A stretch of 64,000 nt of DNA from Verrucomicrobiia bacterium. GTDB taxonomy: Bacteria; Verrucomicrobiota; Verrucomicrobiia; Palsa-1439. The notes beneath the pieces are model-generated. The model saw only the letters and a program-made list of their open reading frames with translations, was not told where the DNA came from and searched no databases. The position numbers were made by a program, and so were the translations under genes. Of the stretch, positions 2,973-50,070 are shown piece after piece (the first letter of the stretch is position 1; every line of letters begins with the position of its first letter). The stretch covers positions 885 to 64,884 of the forward strand of contig JBKQMH010000175.1 of NCBI GenBank assembly GCA_052146795.1. Reading direction: 5' to 3'.

Positions 2973-5711
2973 ATGCTTACGGCCAAAGCACAATACAGTT
3001 TGCAGGACGCCGAGCGGTATTTCCAAGAGCACCTCTCCGTTGGCGATTACTACTCGGAGAACCAAGCCGTCGCGGGCCACTGGATCGGCAAAGGTGCGCA
3101 GGCGCTCGAATTGTCTGGAGACACCTACAAAGACGAGTTCGTGCGCCTGTGCGAGAATCTCCATCCGCAGACCGGCCAGCGACTCACGTTGCGGCATAAA
3201 ACCACCCGTCGCGAGGTTGGAGCGGATGGCGCCGAACGTCAAAGCGCTAATCGCCGCGTGTTCTACGACTTCACATTCTCTCCGCCCAAGTCCGTGTCCA
3301 TCGCCGCTCTGGTGGGCCAGGATCGCCGTATTGTCCAGGCGCACGAGCAGGCGGTGGCGACCGCGCTTTGTGAATTGGAATCGTTCGCTGCAACGCGCGT
3401 GCGTAAGGACGGGCAGTGCACCGCCCGCACCACGGGAAACATCGTGGCCGCCGTGTTTCGGCACGAGACCTCGCGTGCCCTGGACCCGCATTTGCACAGT
3501 CACTGCATCCTGTTCAATGCCACTCATGACCCGGTTGAGAACCGGTGGAAAGCCCTGGAGAATTACGAGATGTTGGTGGCCATCAAGTTCATCGAGGGTC
3601 TTTACTACCACGAGTTGGCCCGCGCGCTGCGCCGGTTTGGCTACGAGATCGACAACAAGCCCCGGGGGGATTTTGAAATCAAGGGGCTTGCCCCCTCATT
3701 GATCGAGAAGTTTTCCAAACGGCACCAGGAAATCGACCAGAAGACGCGTGAACTGTTGGAACGGGAACCGCAGAAGGCCAACGGCAATATCGCGGCGATC
3801 CGCGAGCACATCGCCCACAAAGAGCGCGCCCGCAAGATTCGGAACATCAGTCTGCCGGAACTCCAAGCTTCTTGGGACGCGCAATTGACCCAAGAGGAGA
3901 AAACATCCCTGCGTTATCTGACTACCGGGCAAACCGCACCGACCATATCCAGCGAGATTCTTGCCAAGCGGGCTGTCTCCTGGGCTGAGGAACACTTGTT
4001 GGAACGCCGGTCAGTGGTGCGTGAGCACGAACTGTGGCGGCACGCGCTGGAGCACGTGCGCGGTCAGAGCATCGGACTGTCCGATGTTCAGGCCGTGACC
4101 AGTCAACGCGGCTATGTGCGCGATGAAAAGCATCCCGGGAAGGTCACAACGAAGGAACTGCTGCGCAGGGAATGGGAGATTGTGTGTATGGCCAAAGACG
4201 GCATTGGCCGGTTCGGCCCGTACTGCTCCGGCCTGTCGATCCAGAATTTCAAACTGGACGCCGAGCAGCGTCAAGCCGTCGAGCGTATCCTGCGGTCGCG
4301 CGATTTTGTCACATTGTTTCGCGGCGGGGCCGGCACGGGCAAGAGTTACACGTTGCGGGAAGTGTATGGCGCTCTTCAACAAGCCGGGCACACGGTCACG
4401 GTCATCGCCCCGCAACGGCAACAGGTCATGGACCTGGAAAAGGACGGCTTTCGTGGCGCACAGACTGTCAGCGGCTTTTTGACGCGTGGAATCCTCTCCC
4501 AAGGCGGCGTGATATTGGTCGATGAAGCCGGACAGATTGGTGGTCGGCAAATGCACCAGCTCTTGAGCTTGGCGCAAGCCAACCAGGGCCGGGTGATCCT
4601 CTCCGGTGACACCCGCCAGCACGGCGCGGTGGAAGCGTCGGACGCGTTGCGTGCCATCGAGAAGTATTCAACATTGCGGGCCATCGAACTCACCGAGATT
4701 CGGCGTCAAGACCCGGCCCGGGCGAAGACCCGCGCCGAACGTGAGCAGATTGCGCAGTACAAGGAAGCCGTCAAAGAAGCGTCGGCAGGCAACCTCGACG
4801 CATCATTCAATCGGTTGGACCGTCAGGGAGCCATCGTGGTGTGTTCGCCGTCCGACCAGGAACAGCGCCTTGCTCAAAGCTACCTTGCGTTGGCCGAACG
4901 GCGTTCGTCCGTGGTCGTGGTTTCACAGACCTGGTCGGAGATCCACCGGGTCAATGAGCAAGTGCGCGCCGCGCTGAAATCGCGCGGCCTTCTCGGTGCC
5001 GAAGACCGGGCGATGACCACGCTGGAGACGGTCGATTTGACCCACGCCCAAAAACGGGATCGGCGGTTCTACAACGAGGATACTGTGATCGTGTTGAACC
5101 GTAGCGCAGCCGGATTCGACAGGGGTCAGGTTTGTCAACTCGTGGACATCACCGACAAGGGCTTTCTTCTGAAGAATGCGGACAAGACTCGCACCGTCCC
5201 ATTCCGGTTTGTGGAGCGGCTCACGGTGTGCCAGCCCAAGGAACTCATGTTGGCGGCCGGCGACCGTCTGCAACTGAAGGCCAACGCGAAGACACGAGCC
5301 GGCCAGCGCCTTGCCAATGGCGAACTGGTCACGGTGAAGGAAGTCGGCGCCGACGGACGAATCAGACTGACGGACCGGCGGGTTCTGCAGAAAGATTACC
5401 GGCAATTCGTACGCGGCTTTGCCATCACGTCCTATGCCTCGCAGGGCAAGACGGTCGATCACGTCTTGTTCTCCGATTCGGCCATCAAGGCCGCCACGAA
5501 CCAGCAACAGTGGTATGTGACCATTTCCCGGGGGCGCACGGGAATTCAGATTTTCACCGGCGACAAGGTGCAACTGCGGGAGAACATCCTGCGTTCCGGG
5601 AACCGCGAATTGGCGATTGATTTGGCAGAGCAACGCCATCTCCACAGGCTCTACTACGACGTGCTGCATGGGCCGGGCGTGGAACAACAAACCAGAGGGG
5701 TCAAGGTATGA
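2973..5711 (+). CDS. Conjugative relaxase/helicase, MobF family (TrwC/TraI/TraA-like): N-terminal relaxase domain with C-terminal RecD/UvrD-like helicase
   Basis: 912 aa. N-terminal relaxase motifs include FRHETSRALDPHLHSHCILFN (His triad) and upstream catalytic Tyr region. Central Walker A GGAGTGKS with helicase motifs downstream. Size and architecture match TrwC-type relaxases. Confidence 0.85.
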   Translation: MLTAKAQYSLQDAERYFQEHLSVGDYYSENQAVAGHWIGKGAQALELSGDTYKDEFVRLCENLHPQTGQRLTLRHKTTRREVGADGAERQSANRRVFYDFTFSPPKSVSIAALVGQDRRIVQAHEQAVATALCELESFAATRVRKDGQCTARTTGNIVAAVFRHETSRALDPHLHSHCILFNATHDPVENRWKALENYEMLVAIKFIEGLYYHELARALRRFGYEIDNKPRGDFEIKGLAPSLIEKFSKRHQEIDQKTRELLEREPQKANGNIAAIREHIAHKERARKIRNISLPELQASWDAQLTQEEKTSLRYLTTGQTAPTISSEILAKRAVSWAEEHLLERRSVVREHELWRHALEHVRGQSIGLSDVQAVTSQRGYVRDEKHPGKVTTKELLRREWEIVCMAKDGIGRFGPYCSGLSIQNFKLDAEQRQAVERILRSRDFVTLFRGGAGTGKSYTLREVYGALQQAGHTVTVIAPQRQQVMDLEKDGFRGAQTVSGFLTRGILSQGGVILVDEAGQIGGRQMHQLLSLAQANQGRVILSGDTRQHGAVEASDALRAIEKYSTLRAIELTEIRRQDPARAKTRAEREQIAQYKEAVKEASAGNLDASFNRLDRQGAIVVCSPSDQEQRLAQSYLALAERRSSVVVVSQTWSEIHRVNEQVRAALKSRGLLGAEDRAMTTLETVDLTHAQKRDRRFYNEDTVIVLNRSAAGFDRGQVCQLVDITDKGFLLKNADKTRTVPFRFVERLTVCQPKELMLAAGDRLQLKANAKTRAGQRLANGELVTVKEVGADGRIRLTDRRVLQKDYRQFVRGFAITSYASQGKTVDHVLFSDSAIKAATNQQQWYVTISRGRTGIQIFTGDKVQLRENILRSGNRELAIDLAEQRHLHRLYYDVLHGPGVEQQTRGVKV

Positions 5712-8219: not shown

Positions 8220-9460
8220 TCCCGCAATTGGCCGTCGCCAACGACAACGAACTTGTAGCTGGTCAATTCCTCCAGGCCCATCGGGCCGCGGGCGTGGATT
8301 TTGTCCGTAGAAATGCCGATTTCGGCGCCGAACCCGTATTGGCCGCCGTCGGCGAGGCGCGTGCTGGCGTTCCAGAACACGCTGGAGCTGTCCACTTCGC
8401 GCAGGAATTTTTCAGCGGTGGCCTTGTTGCCCGTGACGATGGCATCGCTGTGGGCGGACCCATATTTCGTGATGTGATCGATGGCTTCGTCCACGCTCTT
8501 GACGACGCGCACGGCGAGGATGAGATCGAGGTACTCCGCGTACCAATCGTCTTCGGTCGCGGCGCTCGCACTCGATACGAGCTGGCGCGTCCGCTCGTCA
8601 CCGCGCAGCTCGACTCTGTATTCGCCAAGCGCCTTGGCCACGCGCGGCAGAAACTTGTCGGCGATTGTTTCGTCAATGAGCAGCGTTTCGATGGCGTTGC
8701 AGACGCCGGGGCGCTGGCATTTGGCGTTGACGACGATCTTCTCCGCCATGTCGAAATCGGCGTCGCGGTCGACGTACACGTGACACACGCCCTTGTAGTG
8801 TTTGATGACGGGAATGCGCGATTTTTCCGCCACGGCGCGAATCAGCCCTTCCCCGCCCCGTGGGATGCAGAGATTGATCAGGTCATCGAGTTTCAGCAAC
8901 TCGTCGATGGCGGCGCGGTCCGTCGTGGGCACGACCGTGATGCTGTTGGGAGGAATCCATTTCAAGTTCATCGCTTCGGCAATGGCGAGGTTCGAGTGAA
9001 TGGCTTCCGATCCGCCGCGCAGGATCACGGCGTTGCCGGTCTTGTAACACAAACACGCCGCGTCGGCCGTCACGTTCGGACGCGATTCGTAAATGATCAG
9101 GATCACGCCGATGGGAACGCGGACTTTCTGGATGCGAATCCCGTTCGGGCGCGTCCATTCGCTGATGACCTTGCCGACGGGATCTTCGAGGGCCGCGACG
9201 TCGCGGACGCCCACGGCCATCTCCATGATCCGTCTGTCCGTGAGAATCAGACGATCCAGCATCGCGGACGACAACCCGGCCTTGCGCCCTGCTTCGATGT
9301 CTTTCGCATTGGCCTTTTTGATGGACGCGACGTTGCGTTCGATGGCGTCCTCCATTTCCAACAGGTCGTCGTTCTTCTTTTTCGTGGCGCGCCTGGCCAG
9401 CACACGCGCGGCATCCCGCGAACGCTCGGCCAGTATTCGAATCTGTTGTTTCAAATCCAT
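8216..9460 (-). CDS. proA: Gamma-glutamyl phosphate reductase
   Basis: 414 aa, full-length similarity to ProA (aldehyde dehydrogenase fold; catalytic Cys in GVCNAIETLL region). Confidence 0.93.
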   Translation of the reverse strand: MDLKQQIRILAERSRDAARVLARRATKKKNDDLLEMEDAIERNVASIKKANAKDIEAGRKAGLSSAMLDRLILTDRRIMEMAVGVRDVAALEDPVGKVISEWTRPNGIRIQKVRVPIGVILIIYESRPNVTADAACLCYKTGNAVILRGGSEAIHSNLAIAEAMNLKWIPPNSITVVPTTDRAAIDELLKLDDLINLCIPRGGEGLIRAVAEKSRIPVIKHYKGVCHVYVDRDADFDMAEKIVVNAKCQRPGVCNAIETLLIDETIADKFLPRVAKALGEYRVELRGDERTRQLVSSASAATEDDWYAEYLDLILAVRVVKSVDEAIDHITKYGSAHSDAIVTGNKATAEKFLREVDSSSVFWNASTRLADGGQYGFGAEIGISTDKIHARGPMGLEELTSYKFVVVGDGQLRE

Positions 9461-24841: not shown

Positions 24842-28703
<3,862 letters not shown>

Positions 28704-28749
28704 AGGAATTGCTGAAATCCATGCGACTTATGAACTGGAAACAGCACCG

Positions 28750-29235
28750 ATGATTTCAGCTCGTTCGCTTGGTCAGGCAGTCTTGGCCGCACTGGCCTTG
28801 CTCCTCTGCTCCTGCTCGCGGTTTGTCGTCGACCAGGGGAATATCAACCGTGACGCCGTGTCGCGTTGCGTCCGGAATATCGACGCGTGGAAGAAGGACC
28901 TGGCCAAGCTTGAGATGCTTGAGGGAAAGTTTGATCTCATTTCCGATCAGATCCGCCGCGATTACTCGAAAGCCGCTCCGGACGAGAAGAAAAAACTGCG
29001 CGCGCGGTTCGCCGATGTTCTCTCACAGACGGATCAGACCGAGACCGACGCCGACGCGTTATTCCGCGAAATCATCCGGGAGCTGGAATACGTCTCCCGC
29101 GACAAGCGAGCGCGTGCCCGGATCGCCGTGGTGACCACCCCGTTGCGAGACGCCGAAGGTATCCGCACCCCCGAGATCCAATACGCGATGGATGCCGTGT
29201 CCTCCCAGTTGCAGATCCTGCTGCGGGTCGATTAG
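28750..29235 (+). CDS. Putative lipoprotein
   Basis: 161 aa. Signal peptide with lipobox-like LLCSCS. Confidence 0.45.
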   Translation: MISARSLGQAVLAALALLLCSCSRFVVDQGNINRDAVSRCVRNIDAWKKDLAKLEMLEGKFDLISDQIRRDYSKAAPDEKKKLRARFADVLSQTDQTETDADALFREIIRELEYVSRDKRARARIAVVTTPLRDAEGIRTPEIQYAMDAVSSQLQILLRVD

Positions 29236-29347
29236 GCGGGCTGCCGATGATGCGCGCGGCGTCGAGGTGTTTCGTCGTGCCGCAGTTCTGGCACATCCAA
29301 CTGTCCCGCTCCATTACTGCTCTTGTCCAACGTTGATCTTTGTTCAT
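29236..29347 (-). pseudogene. HNH-endonuclease N-terminal remnant (copy 1)
   Basis: Strong RBS AAAGGAGTAGAGCCG-ATG, then MNKDQRWTRAVMERDSWMCQNCG, an HNH-type start (CxxC zinc-knuckle). The remainder diverges and runs into the convergent lipoprotein gene. Confidence 0.4.
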
Positions 29348-29466
29348 CGGCTCTACTCCTTTATTTTGATCGTGGGGAGTAGAGCGGATGAACGGTCGTT
29401 TGTAGCGACGCTGGGGGGTTCTGTCGTTTCCTGTTGCCTGCGTGCGAAGGAGTCGAAGCGATGGGG
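29302..29466. repeat. Imperfect direct repeat copy 1 (about 165 bp; contains HNH remnant start, RBS and upstream region)
   Basis: ccgctccattactgcTcttgTcca...ttgatc..tt...ctcctttNttttgatcgtg...gcgaaggNgt..g.g shared with 30709-30882. Confidence 0.6.
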
Positions 29467-29579
29467 AACCCGCTACTGAGGGAGCTGTGTGATGTTTTTT
29501 GGGATTGCTTCTGCTGTTGGAGAATGCGTAGACTCAGGTTTGTTTCGCCCCGCTTAAAGTTGCCGGAAGGAGAAGCGCA

Positions 29580-30536
29580 ATGAACCACAAAGCTGCGACC
29601 AGTTGGATGTCAATCGTCTGCATCTCGGTTTCTCTGCTCTGTTTCACGCTCCACTGTTTCGCCGGCGATGAAGATGCCCGACAGAAAAAACTCGTTCAGA
29701 AGCTAAATACCATCACGATTCCTGGGCTTAAATATCGTGAGGCAATGCCCTCTGACCTTCTTGCGTTCTTATCGGACGAAAGCAGAAGGCTCGACCCCGA
29801 AAAAGTTGGCGTGAATATCATTTTAGAGGGTGTGATTGACGAAACCAAAGTGACCATATCTGCGAACAACCTGTCGCTGTTTGATGCAGTGAAATACATC
29901 TGCCAATTGGCTGGTCTGACCTATCGCATTGACCCTAACGCAGTGATTATCACCAAAGGGGGCAAAACCGAATCGCTCGCGCAAGTTTCGGAGCTTCCGA
30001 CCAATATAACTGTCAATGGCGACACGTACGAAGATGTGCGCTGGCGACAGGTTACGCCAACAACGGTGACAATTTTCCACAAGACTGGCGTTGCGACCAT
30101 TCCCTTAGCAAGTTTGCCGCCTACTTTGCAGCAAAGATTTGGATACGACCCGCAGAAAGCAGCGGAATTCCAAGCTGCGGAAGATGCGAATGCAGCTAAA
30201 GCCTTAGCATCTAGGGACAGATTTGGACGCGTTTGGCATGTCGCTGAGTATGAGGCCCACAGTTGGTCAGGAGTTTGGGTTCGGCGCGGGAATAGTTTGG
30301 TTTTTGATGCAGAATTAAGAAGCGGTGATGCCCAAATTAACTATGTCGTTATGCTAACTGTGCAAGGCAATACAATTTACGCAGACAGGGTGCAGGACGG
30401 TCATGTTCGTCGCGGCGAAGGCCCGCATTCATACACCTATGTTGGAACAATCAGTGGTAATTCCGTAAGTGGGCGCACGACATTTGGTGACAATCCAAAC
30501 GGTGGTTGGGACTGGTACGCCACAATCGAACAGTGA
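29580..30536 (+). CDS. Secreted hypothetical protein (signal peptide; lower-GC)
   Basis: 318 aa. N-terminal signal peptide. GC about 48%. N-terminal region weakly reminiscent of secretin/TonB N-terminal (STN)-like folds. C-terminal half Gly/Asn-rich. Confidence 0.55.
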   Translation: MNHKAATSWMSIVCISVSLLCFTLHCFAGDEDARQKKLVQKLNTITIPGLKYREAMPSDLLAFLSDESRRLDPEKVGVNIILEGVIDETKVTISANNLSLFDAVKYICQLAGLTYRIDPNAVIITKGGKTESLAQVSELPTNITVNGDTYEDVRWRQVTPTTVTIFHKTGVATIPLASLPPTLQQRFGYDPQKAAEFQAAEDANAAKALASRDRFGRVWHVAEYEAHSWSGVWVRRGNSLVFDAELRSGDAQINYVVMLTVQGNTIYADRVQDGHVRRGEGPHSYTYVGTISGNSVSGRTTFGDNPNGGWDWYATIEQ

Positions 30537-30688
30537 CGTGGCGAAGCACAGCCATCGGCAAATATCGAAAATTCCAAAGGCGATACTAATAAACGTCCCT
30601 TGCGGTCTACGAACAAAAACGATACTCTCGAATGTTTCATCAATTTGGGGTTCGACTCAGGGGGGTCGTGGGTGCCCTGTCAGACGCT

Positions 30689-30751
30689 TTAGCGGCGACA
30701 TGTCCAATTGTACCGCTCCATTACTGCCCTTGCCCATTTTTGATCGTTCAT
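30689..30751 (-). pseudogene. HNH-endonuclease N-terminal remnant (copy 2, truncated after 20 codons)
   Basis: RBS AAAGGAGCCGGCGAGA-ATG, then MNDQKWARAVMERYNWTCRR-stop. Paralogous to copy 1. Confidence 0.35.
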
Positions 30752-30882
30752 TCTCGCCGGCTCCTTTCTTTGATCGTGTCGGGAGCCAGTTAGAGAATGA
30801 ATCACATCGGGGCGACCGTGGGTTTTGGATTGTGCCTTTGGTTGCCGTGCACGCGCGAGCGGCGAAGGCGTGCGGGTTTGGG
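30709..30882. repeat. Imperfect direct repeat copy 2
   Basis: See copy 1. The two copies bracket the secreted-protein gene 29580..30536. Confidence 0.6.
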
Positions 30883-30970
30883 TGTCGCTGTGCGGCGCGT
30901 GCGTGAGTCTGCGAAGGCAGCGATTGACAACTTCTGTAGAGCGGAGTTAAGGTAGGCGGAGGTTAAGGAG

Positions 30971-31438
30971 TTGTGTATGGCATCGGACACCGACCGCGAG
31001 AATCCTGAAAACATCCGGGCTCTTCATTCTGGGCTCGTCGCGAAACGGACGACATTGAACCAGATGATGTGGCAAGCTCCGGTTATATCTCTTACACGCC
31101 AAGCTTTTCTGTTGACCATTGCTTTTGGTGACGGCAAGAACATTTTCTACAGAATCATGAGCGGATTGGTCGCTATGTTAATCGGACTTATGTCTTGCCA
31201 ATTATTCCTGCGACATAAGAAGCTAGAGACTCATGCGACCTGTGAACTGTGCAAATTGGAGAAAGATTACTTCGGGCGGACTTTTCACGAGCGGCCCGAA
31301 AGTGGCCAGTGGCCCCCGTCTGCTTGGATGTCCCACCCCATTTGGAAGTGGGGTCTGATTCTAATCAGCCTAACAGGACTATTTCCATTGTTCGAATATA
31401 TCTGGCGAATTTGGCCGTGCTTGCGGCAGTGCCTTTAA
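30971..31438 (+). CDS. Hypothetical small membrane protein (lower-GC)
   Basis: 155 aa. Two or three hydrophobic helices. No family recognised. Confidence 0.4.
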   Translation: MCMASDTDRENPENIRALHSGLVAKRTTLNQMMWQAPVISLTRQAFLLTIAFGDGKNIFYRIMSGLVAMLIGLMSCQLFLRHKKLETHATCELCKLEKDYFGRTFHERPESGQWPPSAWMSHPIWKWGLILISLTGLFPLFEYIWRIWPCLRQCL

Positions 31439-31517
31439 ACTGGGGTCATGTTGGGTCGTCCTACAGCGGAGCGAGCGTTGAGCAGGTGTCGTTTCCTGCG
31501 ACAGTAGCCAGAGTATG

Positions 31518-32816
31518 TTAGGCCTGTTTGTTTCTCTTCTCAATGGGCACGTAATGCTGCTCGCGCGGGCCGACGTAGACCTGCCGCGGACGGTAGATGC
31601 GACTGCTGGGCTCGTCCATGATTTCCTTGTAGTTCGCAATCCAGCCCGGCATCCGTCCGATGGCGAAAATTACCGTGAACATCTCAACCGGTATGCCGAT
31701 GGCCCGCATGATGATGCCGCTGTAAAAATCCACGTTGGGATAGAGCTTGCGCTCGATGAAATACTCGTCGTGCATGGCCGCCTCTTCCAGCCTCTTCGCG
31801 ATCGCCAGCAACGGATCGTCAATGTGCAGCAACTGCAGGATCCTGTCACACTGCTCTTTGATGATCTTGGCGCGCGGGTCATAGTTCTTATAGACACGGT
31901 GCCCGAAACCCATAAGTTTTTTACCGCTCTTCTTGTCCTTGGCGGCGGCAATGAACTTCGATCCATCGTCGCCATCGCGGTGGATCAGTTCCAGCATTTC
32001 GATGACCGCCTGGTTGGCGCCGCCATGGAGCGGCCCCCACAACGCGCACACGCCGCCGGCGGCACAGGCGAACAGATTGGCGCGGCTCGAAGCGATCATG
32101 CGGACGGTCGAGGTCGAACAATTCTGCTCGTGGTCGGCATGCAGCAGAAAGATGAGATCCAGAGCGCGCACGACTTCCGGCTTTAAATCATAGTCCTGAT
32201 ACGGCTCGGAGAACATCATGTGCAGAAAGTTGGCCGTGTATTTGTACACCGGCTTCGGGTAGATGATCGGCAACCCGCGTGACTTGCGATAGGAAAACGC
32301 GGCAATGGTGCGCACCTTGGAAATCAGTCGGGCCGACTGCAGTTCGAACCTGTCGGGCTTGTACCCCTCCATGAGCCGCGGGTGAAAACAGCCTGCCGCG
32401 TTGATCATCGAGGACAAGATCGCCATCGGATGCGCGTTGGGCGGAAAGCCTTCGAAGTGAAACTTCATGTCCTCGTGCAACATTTCGTTTTGCGTCAGCA
32501 ATTCCGAGAACCGGTGCAATTCCTGGCTGGTCGGCAGATGGCCGTAGATGAGCAAATAGGCCGCTTCGATGAACGTGGATTTCTCGGCCAACTCCTCAAT
32601 CGGGATGCCGCGATACCGCAAAATCCCCTTCTCGCCGTCGATGAACGTGATCGCGCTGCTGCACGAGCCGGTGTTGGAATAGCCGTCATCGAGCGTGATC
32701 AGCCCGGACTCGTCCCGTAATTTCGTGATGTCAACCGCGTGCTCGTTCTCGGTTCCAACGACGACGGGCAGTTGATAAACCTTGCCGCCGACTTCCAGTT
32801 TCGCCTGCTCGCTCAT
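31518..32816 (-). CDS. gltA: Citrate synthase (type II)
   Basis: Start [17 protein letters not shown]. Conserved citrate synthase catalytic regions ([15 protein letters not shown]..., [11 protein letters not shown]). Confidence 0.9.
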
Positions 32817-32990
32817 AGCGCCTTCCTCCATCGAATCATTGTGGTCTTTACACCTATCTTTACCGTGATTCAGCCCGCACCGCCACTGTTTTTCGCGCCG
32901 AGTAGATCATGAAGACAATGTTGGTGCTGCGCCAGAATTCATTTACGACGCCGCGGACGGTTCGCCTCTTCAACAAGGGTTCGGCCAGAG

Positions 32991-49149: not shown

Positions 49150-50070
49150 CTAATAATATCGGCTCGATGGTAGCTTAACGGCGCCCCGTGTCTCGGGAAT
49201 GACGGCCAGTTTTCCATCGAGCAACTTCACCGGGCCTGTGATCGTGAGGGCCTGGCCCGGCTGTAGTTTGTCAGCCGGCAGCCCCGCCAACACAGTCTGA
49301 CCCAGCAAGATCTGGATCTCACCGGTTGCGTCCCGAAGGCTGAACCGACGGCCTTTGTCGGTGCTGCCGCTTCCTGAAATGGTGCCGGAAATGACCACCA
49401 CGCGACCTACCCAATCCTCCTTGATTTTCCCGATGCCGGTTGCCACGGGCGCGGGTGGGGAGCTGGTTGTCAAAGCGGCGTTGGTAGATCGAGCGGACGG
49501 AGAAGCACCGGCAACCGGGATGTTTGTCGGAGCCGCGTTGGTAGATGGAGCGGGCGGAGAAGCACCGGCAGCCGGGGTGTTTGTCGAAGCCGCGGGTATG
49601 GGGGCTGTGCCCACCACCCGGATCGCATCGTTGCTGGAAATGCGCAGTTGTATATTATGGCGATAGGTGGACACCTTGACCTCGGCGTTGATGATATTGC
49701 CGAGTTTCACCTTCGAGGAAAGTTGCGTTTCCATGTCCGACCAATACACCAGTGGGACTGTCGCATTGCTTTCCGTGAGGGTGACGATGTAGGGCGAACG
49801 CGGGCCGGTCGGTTCCCGGATGTTCGTGATGAGAGCTTGCACCGTGATCAGTTGGTTGGTCAATGACAGGTCAATGCTGGGAATCGGCGTGAGAGGTGCG
49901 TCCTCCGCCAGGGCGGACGCCAAGCCCACCAAATTCGTGCAGACGATCGTGACAAAAATGCGCAAAAGCCTGCGCAGGCGCCTGTTTTCCGCAGAAGCGA
50001 TCCCGGTTCCTAACCGGGGACAATCGGGCTTTGGCATCGGCATTTCCTCTCCTTCTCCAAACATGTGCAA
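49150..50070 (-). CDS. Secreted protein with two OB-fold-like halves joined by a Pro/Ala/Thr/Asn-rich repetitive linker
   Basis: 306 aa. Signal-like hydrophobic segment. Internal 19-aa tandem repeat. Start among the N-terminal Met codons uncertain. Confidence 0.5.
   Translation of the reverse strand: MHMFGEGEEMPMPKPDCPRLGTGIASAENRRLRRLLRIFVTIVCTNLVGLASALAEDAPLTPIPSIDLSLTNQLITVQALITNIREPTGPRSPYIVTLTESNATVPLVYWSDMETQLSSKVKLGNIINAEVKVSTYRHNIQLRISSNDAIRVVGTAPIPAASTNTPAAGASPPAPSTNAAPTNIPVAGASPSARSTNAALTTSSPPAPVATGIGKIKEDWVGRVVVISGTISGSGSTDKGRRFSLRDATGEIQILLGQTVLAGLPADKLQPGQALTITGPVKLLDGKLAVIPETRGAVKLPSSRYY
49440..49570. repeat. Tandem about 57-bp repeat (2 copies) inside OB-fold protein gene
   Basis: gcgttggtagatNgagcgg(a/g)cggagaagcaccggca(a/g)ccggg(a/g)tgtttgtcg(g/a)agcc repeated head-to-tail. 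Confidence 0.7.

Follow-up and report, generated by a model that had tools for sequence, protein, structure and literature searches.

The RS1/CTX-phi arrays of Vibrio are satellite- or filamentous-phage-like integrative elements with a gpII-type replication initiator (Rep). Transposition of the IS91 type takes place next to CTTG or GTTC without duplicating the target, and neighbouring DNA is often taken along (PMC13181058); a further precedent is the site-specific integration by HUH proteins such as Rep of adeno-associated virus (AAV) or the relaxase TrwC (PMC6049929). In this work, an islet at positions 29236-31517 of a 64,000-nucleotide stretch of a Verrucomicrobiia bacterium (contig JBKQMH010000175.1, positions 885 to 64,884; this whole stretch is referred to as the window) was analysed. 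The islet, which had been pointed out in an earlier reading made from the DNA letters alone (hereafter, the original prediction), is placed between a gene for a 161-aa lipoprotein-like protein (lipo161) and the citrate synthase gene gltA, and it contains two truncated HNH nuclease genes (copies A and B) and two further genes, sec318 and mem153. We conclude, with a probability of roughly 80%, that a small integrative element inserted twice in succession into the gltA 3' end and that the islet is what internal deletions later left of both insertions. The family of the parent element appears to be previously undescribed.

Both truncated HNH genes are encoded on the minus strand, and each of their start codons (ATG at 29347 in copy A and at 30751 in copy B) has GGAG upstream, in agreement with the original prediction of HNH gene starts with a strong ribosome-binding site (RBS). 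The homologous part of copy A, translated as MNKDQRWTRAVMERDSWMCQNCGTTKHLDAARIIG, comprises 35 codons and ends 6 nt past the lipo161 stop codon; beyond them, the listed 91-aa open reading frame (ORF) is spurious, as it runs antisense into the lipoprotein-like gene. Copy B, translated as MNDQKWARAVMERYNWTCRR and then a stop, is homologous over ~16 codons, so the view that neither copy continues as an intact nuclease was correct. The complete beta-beta-alpha-metal core (CxxC, catalytic His, Asn, and CxxH/His) is lacking in both copies: copy A has only the first CxxC, the first His of its HNH motif being replaced in the protein alignment (DAAH to DAAR), and copy B ends at codon 16-20. Both thus end before the Asn and the second Cys/His pair, in which they differ from the small mobile HNH proteins of PF01844, and the Pfam search recognized no HNH domain in either window ORF. 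By prediction, neither fragment can be an active nuclease.

The two copies had also been described as imperfect direct repeats of about 170 bp. Their similarity is real, as the best local alignment (29296-29379 versus 30703-30785) scored 68, i.e., far above 500 shuffles (18.6 ± 2.4, maximum 32), and the window contains just two occurrences of a 24-nt degenerate core, with 0 expected; the mutual similarity (~80%), however, extends over 84 nt only, and past the hairpin the leaders of A and B are unalignable (score 16 versus a shuffle mean of 17.3). Set against its own subtype elsewhere, each copy is an element-derived segment of ~180-195 nt. Copy A is 94.9% identical over 29241-29416 to the locus with an intact gene L008/L020 (collected loci are given as L numbers), with homology ending at 29241/29242, and together with its leader (29241-29436) it is 93-95% identical to L008/L010. 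Copy B shows 94% identity to L015 over 103 nt and 85% identity over 30703-30885 to L013, in which an intact 85-aa HNH gene is present. Compared in this way, A and B are assigned to two different subtypes, each having far closer matches in other genomes (85-95%) than in the respective partner. The direct repeat formed by A and B, 84 nt at most, could recombine and delete sec318. The locus L017 was checked as a possible A/B recombinant; its HNH gene is a third variant, combined at the A-type junction with a leader of subtype 2, and such an origin was neither shown nor excluded.

A word-indexed protein search with the 44-aa fragment as a query gave three other truncated ORFs only and missed the intact genes, while exact-pattern DNA scans of GTDB genomes and JGI metagenomes gave 12 more loci, all of them from peat-bog Verrucomicrobia; the probe pattern sits in HNH codons 7-14, and the sample is therefore biased toward copies retaining the 5' end. 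An intact full-length copy, for which the original prediction had proposed to search, was found in such relatives: genes for HNH proteins of 85-87 aa (one of which starts with MNKDQRWTRAVMERDSWMCQNCGTTKHLDAAHIVGRHVNPSLRHDITNGVTLCRWCHDFYHQF), with the leader and first codons as in the window, are present in L008/L011/L020, L013, L024, L027, and L029. They score above the gathering threshold of Pfam HNH (PF01844; 25.3 bits for L008 and 30.0 bits for L013 versus 21.4), match many PHROG HNH families (E down to 1.5e-9) and have the layout CxxC...H...N...CxxH, by which they resemble the small HNH proteins of phages and mobile elements. As these intact relatives share the leader and the first codons with the window copies, the latter are 5' remnants of a genuine HNH gene. 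Independent truncations number seven or eight, all within codons 16-48 and all differing in endpoint and downstream peptide. In L024, at the glutaredoxin locus, the intact HNH gene is directly followed by an inverted short copy of HNH codons 26-44 (9373-9429, 68% aa identity).

The intact element of the relatives is 2.2-4.2 kb long. It opens with the left end TA(A)TA(A/G)(G/A)ATGCACA, followed, in some copies only, by three 97-nt iterons, and then by genes for a zinc-ribbon/helix-turn-helix (HTH) protein of ~150 aa and a rolling-circle Rep-like protein of 273-296 aa, by one to three small zinc-ribbon ORFs and, on the opposite strand, by the gene of the HNH nuclease (85-87 aa), with the RBS and start codon in a hairpin. 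Next come a variable cargo slot of low guanine-plus-cytosine (GC) content, the palindromic motif GAGCACGAGAGNGCTAGCGTCTCG and a spare copy of the end of the target gene, finishing in CCTTGT. The locus occupied in the window is also occupied in L020 and in L029, the closest relative, whose flanks share 92% nucleotide identity with the window (order: DUF748 gene, lipo161, ..., Rep, zinc-ribbon, HNH, cargo, gltA), and lipo161 synteny was seen in L007, L017, L020, and L029. In L020, read in the orientation of the window, a displaced 3' fragment of gltA precedes the three 97-nt repeats, the zinc-ribbon/HTH gene, the gene of a 281-287-aa protein, one or two small zinc-ribbon ORFs, the HNH gene on the opposite strand, one or two cargo genes, the palindromic motif and intact gltA. 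The comparison of synteny suggested in the original prediction thus places the HNH gene within a 2.2-4.2 kb element between the lipoprotein gene and gltA. The repeats of L020 (9090-9380, equal to L011 436-734) stand in tandem right at the left end of the element, each starting from TATATATAAGATGCACAACTGAACC; they are iteron-like and could be multiple copies of an origin.

Elsewhere, the element was found in L024 between the glutaredoxin gene (grx) and serA, a position occupied in L004-L006 by a truncated version, as well as adjoining accB/accC (L028) and at one more site (L025/L026). The minimal, cargo-less form, L027, comprises 2,228 nt and encloses Rep, a 101-aa zinc-ribbon ORF, an intact HNH gene, the palindrome and 68 glutaredoxin codons; it is contained in a 2,283-nt metagenome contig with an exact 55-nt terminal overlap (1-55 = 2229-2283), ending precisely at CCTTGT. 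Internally deleted derivatives are present at both loci, in L009 (gltA) and L004 (glutaredoxin), where 35-45 nt of the left end run straight into HNH codon 37-40. All intact cases have the HNH gene embedded in a conserved unit with the Rep and zinc-ribbon genes. No tyrosine or serine recombinase is encoded in any intact element examined, and DNA-pattern scans gave only one or two copies per genome. Neither the element DNA nor its Rep had a match in IMG/VR, PLSDB, or INPHARED. A diversity-generating retroelement, an integron cassette and a miniature inverted-repeat transposable element were considered and rejected (no reverse transcriptase, no attC-like site, no terminal inverted repeat, and one to two copies per genome).

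The elements begin directly after (T)CCTTGT, which is placed 114 nt before the gltA stop codon, in the 5' untranslated region (UTR) of the glutaredoxin gene, and at a third site. At gltA, the sequence ...CCATGATTTCCTTGTA is followed either by gltA (GTTCGC...) or by the left end of the element (TATAAGATGCACAA...), and all gltA fragments (L009, L011, L013 twice, L020, and L029) start at the equivalent of 31631. At the glutaredoxin locus, ...CTCATGATTTTTCCTTGT is joined to TAATAGAATGCACAA 13 nt upstream of the start codon, and the second copy of the duplicated segment runs on into the chromosome; at the third flank, which ends in TCCTTGT, ...GGTTGTCCTTGT is joined to TAATAAGATGCACA. The gltA and grx sites, which belong to unrelated loci, have 14-16 nt in common (ATGATTT(TT)CCTTGT). 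On the other side of the element, the near-palindrome GAGCACGAGAGNGCTAGCGTCTCG was found in 18 of the 31 loci, at both target loci, and past it there is the copy of the target gene end, again finishing in CCTTGT. The flanking direct repeats formed in this way are 100-260 nt long and 98-99% identical (e.g., L011 348-448 versus 4539-4639, 98%). Moreover, units are stacked in tandem: in L013, repeats at 1-119 and 3007-3125 (99% identical) bound a 3006-bp unit, after which a second element, 75-83% identical, follows, while L029 contains an older decayed unit plus an intact one. A 51-nt remnant of the gltA 3' end in L029 overlaps the lipo161 stop codon, which indicates that lipo161 convergent with gltA was the ancestral state.

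Some further observations concern the insertion locus itself. In L020, the lipoprotein gene and the displaced gltA fragment have between them a 149-aa fragment of an insertion sequence (IS) integrase core (rve; 8357-8806), so the hotspot also gathers IS debris. The contig of L002 (JBKQLH010000171.1, GCA_052147155.1) is otherwise identical to window positions 26900-31630, and at 4740-5140 its gltA match ends with ...GATTTCCTT, 3 nt before the insertion point, being followed by AACCCAAC and unrelated sequence with a Flp/Fap pilin gene; either a further insertion at the hotspot or a chimeric assembly formed at the repeat boundary could account for this break. A segment of 72 nt close to the gltA stop codon, on its downstream side, is 93% identical to L010 1436-1508, which abuts the stop codon of an unrelated gene for a 599-aa membrane protein and is preceded by element cargo there. 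Judging from this match, the segment may be an alternative end of the element or mark a fourth insertion site. A junction site of the dif/Xer type was rejected by eye (three different gene-proximal loci, with arms unlike each other).

Integration by ordinary homologous (Campbell-type) recombination, in which the carried gene end would recombine with the chromosome and no sequence-specific enzyme would be involved, would be in line with the length (100-260 nt) and 98-99% identity of the flanking direct repeats, as well as with the lack of an encoded integrase. Nevertheless, in three unrelated flanks (T)CCTTGT is the very sequence after which the left end starts, 14-16 nt being shared between gltA and grx, and because the junction is fixed, homologous recombination alone is the weaker alternative, and we consider it unlikely.

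In the family alignment of the Rep-like protein, three conserved motifs were recognized: FGTTTF, RLH(E/G)(Q/H), and YxxKEMGK. Close members have RLHEQ as the second motif, distant members R(L/I/V)HGH; Y160, which is the single conserved Tyr, as well as K163 and K167, are invariant or almost so across the members. We interpret FGTTTF, RLHEQ, and Y160xxKEMGK as motifs I, II (HUH/HUQ), and III of rolling-circle Rep proteins. An AlphaFold (AF2) model of the 281-aa protein (predicted local distance difference test (pLDDT) 79) places them on strand 68-74, strand 122-128, and helix 160-166, and on this interpretation the protein has an FxTxT-like motif I, motif II on a beta strand, and YxxK on a helix. 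A Foldseek comparison with the viral models of BFVD gave 116 matches at E <= 1e-3, the named ones being microvirus replication initiators, and distant family members match Pfam PF23343 (REP_ORF2-G2P), P0053 above the gathering score and several others just below it. Taken together, these data allow us to regard the 281-aa protein, with moderate confidence, as a relative of rolling-circle initiators. The family is rare: it comprises 12 clusters among 5.8 billion proteins and gave 28 matches at E <= 1e-3 among 1.84 billion representatives.

The element resembles IS91/ISCR in its predicted HUH-type initiator, CTTG-containing insertion sequence, lack of a conventional target-site duplication, subterminal palindrome and carriage of adjacent DNA (one-ended transposition); insertion always takes place 3' of CCTTGT, and the piece of the target gene past the palindrome also ends with CCTTGT. 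It is inserted next to a CTTG tetranucleotide without target duplication, as IS91 is, and the resemblance is one of behaviour only; a Pfam search with the Rep-like protein gave no match to the IS91 transposase domains (Y2_Tnp / Zn_Tnp_IS91) at E <= 5. The element differs from IS91/ISCR by a Rep linked to phage-type initiators (REP_ORF2-G2P and microvirus Rep folds), with a single Tyr in YxxK, by its iterons and HNH gene, by the functional replacement of the target gene end and by specificity for particular loci (gltA and grx). With the RS1/CTX-phi type, it shares a size of a few kb, a putative G2P/ORF2-related rolling-circle initiator, site-specific integration and tandem arrays. However, its sites are the gltA 3' end and the grx 5' UTR rather than dif, with no Xer-type site recognised, it carries an HNH gene and a cargo slot in place of morphogenesis genes, and searches of IMG/VR, INPHARED, and PLSDB gave no relatives. 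Duplication of the target end with the gene left intact, new arrivals beside the gene and decayed units in distal positions are features shared with integrase-encoding islets at gene 3' ends, from which the element differs in that no tyrosine or serine recombinase was found in the intact elements examined.

Applied to the window, the history of the islet may be reconstructed as follows. Insertion would occur immediately after (T)CCTTGT, the spare copy keeping the target gene whole and the original end being displaced as a fragment; new elements would then enter the regenerated site, and older units would come to lie farther from gltA. Unit A (older, subtype 1) would have retained the HNH leader, 35 codons and sec318 as its cargo, and unit B (younger, subtype 2), adjoining gltA, the leader, ~16 codons and mem153. 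Because Rep, the element ends and the gltA duplicate are missing from the window, both units lost everything from inside the HNH gene onward, the deletion in unit A presumably reaching to 6 nt past the lipoprotein stop codon. The homology of the copy A leader to L010, L009, L005, L024, and L029 ends at 29417-29444, and the orthologous locus L007 diverges completely from the window past ~29436. Loss of a unit by recombination between HNH 5' repeats would fit the divergence of L007 and L017 past the leader, which is no proof of it.

As to the mechanism, Rep may nick at CCTTGT and catalyse integration as in IS91-type or other HUH systems, the candidate nick/join junction being CCTTGT/TATAAGATGCAC. 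Homology with the carried gene end possibly assists integration; this end, perhaps captured by read-through to the next CCTTGT, would both preserve the host gene and add homology. The HNH protein might nick the target or the element. Integration may be brought about by Rep, HNH, or host recombination. More speculatively, we propose that these are new integrase-free, rolling-circle-type integrative elements, in which a phage-like HUH Rep would nick CCTTGT/TA(A)TAAGATGCAC and link the element to matching sites of the chromosome, the carried gene end would preserve the host gene and the hairpin-guarded HNH beside the cargo slot would have a cis or trans role in mobilisation or in the exchange of cargo; we treat this as a tentative model, possible rather than probable.

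Several observations weigh against the derivation of the islet from such elements. The islet of the window contains no Rep or zinc-ribbon remnant, left end, palindromic motif or displaced gltA fragment, and the direct repeat of the target gene end, which is present in the relatives, is absent from it. No empty-site allele, with lipo161 directly convergent with gltA, was recovered. The cargo status of sec318 and mem153 is read from position, low GC content and absence from relatives, and not from flanking ends. It should be stressed that the constant retention of the HNH 5' end is partly a matter of ascertainment, as the probe lies in codons 7-14, and that the old unit in L029 has lost the HNH gene entirely. 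Furthermore, the 281-aa family had no direct sequence match in Pfam, PHROG, or PDB (a PDB profile search with the alignment included), and its matches in PDB to the Rep nuclease domains of circoviruses, parvoviruses, and geminiviruses are weak (E 0.02-0.1), other ferredoxin-like folds appearing among them; the predicted assignment as Rep is made only by fold and by a transitive profile link. Finally, the terminal overlap of L027 could reflect a free circular form or a de Bruijn/assembly loop between direct repeats, and no circle is proven.

In both window copies, GGAG and AUG(AAC) form the 3' arm of a long hairpin, for which minimum free energies (MFE) of -34.3 kcal/mol (A, z = -3.5) and -28.5 kcal/mol (B, z = -2.4) were calculated. 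This architecture is present in all 13 distinct copies collected, including truncated ones. The subtypes differ at four consecutive pairs of the inner stem, on both sides (A-U, U-A, C-G, U-A versus G-C, G-C, U-A/G, C-G), and the outer-stem variants CUCC/GGAG and UCUC/GAGA co-vary, a pattern indicating that the predicted hairpin is kept through compensatory changes. The simplest reading is translational occlusion, by which the hairpin would repress the translation of the nuclease gene. Rfam has no family for the hairpin or leader, at the gathering score or at E <= 1 over the islet; over the whole window, only tRNA reached the gathering score, and there was one far sub-threshold chance match in the islet. 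Known RNA families, such as the HEARO/omega RNA associated with HNH proteins, thus gave no covariance-model match in the islet above threshold.

It might be argued that the hairpin, leader, and short ORF together constitute a functional module under selection, e.g., a cis element (a single-strand origin or a recombination hotspot), a regulatory RNA or a peptide of 20-40 aa. Compensatory changes in every copy, even in truncated ones, the confinement of all seven or eight independent truncations to codons 16-48, and the retention of the module together with the left end in the deleted derivatives L009 and L004 would agree with this. On the other hand, copies were ascertained via their 5' codons, which gives a biased sample, the truncation points and downstream peptides are all different, erosion is ongoing in L007 and in the window, where the motif His is lost, the old unit of L029 has no module, and no Rfam family was matched. 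Moreover, the identity of the fragment between the window and L017 (83-85%) is about that of the neighbouring gene (82%). We consider selection on such a module somewhat less likely than Campbell-type integration.

Still less probable is repeated homing, downstream of gltA, by free-standing HNH homing-endonuclease genes that decayed afterwards, their neighbours being unrelated residents. Such a history would account for a bona fide small HNH gene, for its recurrence at the same locus in several genomes and for the commonness of decayed copies, which the homing cycle would predict. Here, however, it is not the gene alone that appears to be mobile: intact HNH genes always reside inside the larger unit with Rep and zinc-ribbon genes; they lie 1.5-3 kb from the insertion point, not at it; and this unit, which has fixed ends, a fixed insertion point and a duplicated target gene end, also occurs at unrelated loci sharing only the (T)CCTTGT core. 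The suggestion of the original prediction that decayed mobile HNH copies delivered or flank cargo thus holds for the decayed HNH genes, the mobile unit, and the ORFs in cargo position, and is not supported for a free-standing homing endonuclease. Its other suggestion, a local duplication in which insertion of the sec318 cassette or unequal crossing-over doubled one HNH 5' segment, is hardly credible, as, despite direct repeats 1.4 kb apart bracketing a single gene, A and B belong to different subtypes, each much nearer to copies in other genomes than to its partner, with unalignable leaders and hairpin stems differing at four paired positions, and the junction of fragment A with lipo161 is shared with L007 and L017, where no sec318 lies beyond it.

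The coordinates of the features discussed above are collected in Table 1.

Table 1. Features of the gltA-proximal islet and its flanks (window coordinates).
Feature	Position	Strand	Remarks
lipo161	28750-29235	+	resident gene for a 161-aa lipoprotein-like protein; chromosomal flank
HNH fragment A (subtype 1)	29241-29347	-	first 35 codons only; pseudogene remnant
Hairpin A	29342-29393	-	Shine-Dalgarno GGAG and AUGAAC paired with upstream sequence
Conserved 5' leader of copy A	29348-29436	-	end of the conserved element core; cargo starts beyond
sec318	29580-30536	+	putative cargo of unit A; 318-aa predicted secreted protein; secretion read from the N-terminal hydrophobic segment
HNH fragment B (subtype 2)	30703-30751	-	~16 homologous codons; ORF stop at 30689
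Hairpin B	30747-30801	-	architecture as in hairpin A, stem sequences different
Conserved 5' leader of copy B (subtype 2)	30752-30885	-	blastn match to L013 2036-2217
mem153	30977-31438	+	putative cargo of unit B; 153-aa predicted membrane protein; hydrophobic N-terminus; flanked by the HNH leader and the end of gltA
72-nt segment just downstream of the gltA stop	31448-31519	+	93% identical to L010 1436-1508
gltA	31518-32831	-	Pfam Citrate_synt, E 6e-133
Last 37 codons and stop of gltA	31518-31631	-	in relatives, a displaced duplicate of this segment lies beyond each inserted element
Unoccupied insertion site ATGATTTCCTTGTA	31618-31631	+	in relatives, left end of the element directly after CCTTGT(A)

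The two genes in cargo position that the original prediction named are present, their secreted and membrane nature being predicted, and the lower GC content of the islet was confirmed (0.495 for sec318 and 0.494 for mem153 versus 0.587 for the whole window). In sec318, a weak STN-like segment (aa 88-125; Pfam STN 22.6 bits, under the 28.4 cutoff), a small, lineage-typical beta module (aa 143-200) and a beta-rich C-terminal part were distinguished. The structure prediction proposed earlier was informative in part: the AF2 model of sec318 is poor overall (pLDDT 60), with aa 143-200 being the modelled exception. About 28 homologues (P0017-P0044), otherwise different small secreted proteins, share the module at aa 143-195 only (ITxxGxxYxxVxWxxVTPxxVTIxHxxGxxTIPLxxLPxxLQxxFGYDP), and some of the module-bearing homologues have a precomputed PF01847 (VHL) match; given this distribution, we regard the module as a lineage-specific shuffled domain. 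At this locus, sec318 is absent from the closest relatives L029 and L020, and at the A-type junctions of L007 and L017 the sequence past the leader differs and is without sec318. For mem153, Pfam and PHROG searches gave no family, and its slot is occupied by other genes in relatives.

The cargo found elsewhere is diverse, i.e., genes for proteins of 246 and 96 aa in L020, 209/228 aa in L029, 151 aa in L013, 201 aa in L015 (PEP-CTERM-like), 177 and 152 aa in L010, and 140 and 71 aa in L024, and none in L027. Both sec318 and mem153 look like lineage-specific envelope proteins. The 151-aa cargo protein of L013 (2372-2827) has a weak restriction-endonuclease-like signature (Mrr_cat_2, E 0.12; phrog_5018, E 1.6e-6), and thus cargo is not always an envelope protein. 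On the other side of the islet, the flank beyond lipo161 carries a DUF748/AsmA gene (Pfam). At window positions 49464-49577, there are two tandem 57-nt copies (86% identical) with no relation to the islet.

If the islet derives from two gutted insertions, its low GC content is explained, and sec318 and mem153 would be horizontally delivered cargo rather than core genes, while the 3' end of gltA (31618-31631) would be a still-open insertion hotspot. The window itself would hold only fossils and two delivered genes, and the interest lies in the very rare parent family, in whose 2.2-4.2 kb a rolling-circle initiator of phage type and a small HNH nuclease come together with a precise insertion point, replacement of the gene end and a swappable slot for cargo. 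If the integration is the work of Rep or HNH, the family would represent a compact, recombinase-free system of site-specific cargo insertion and a new example of HUH enzymes shaping bacterial chromosomes.

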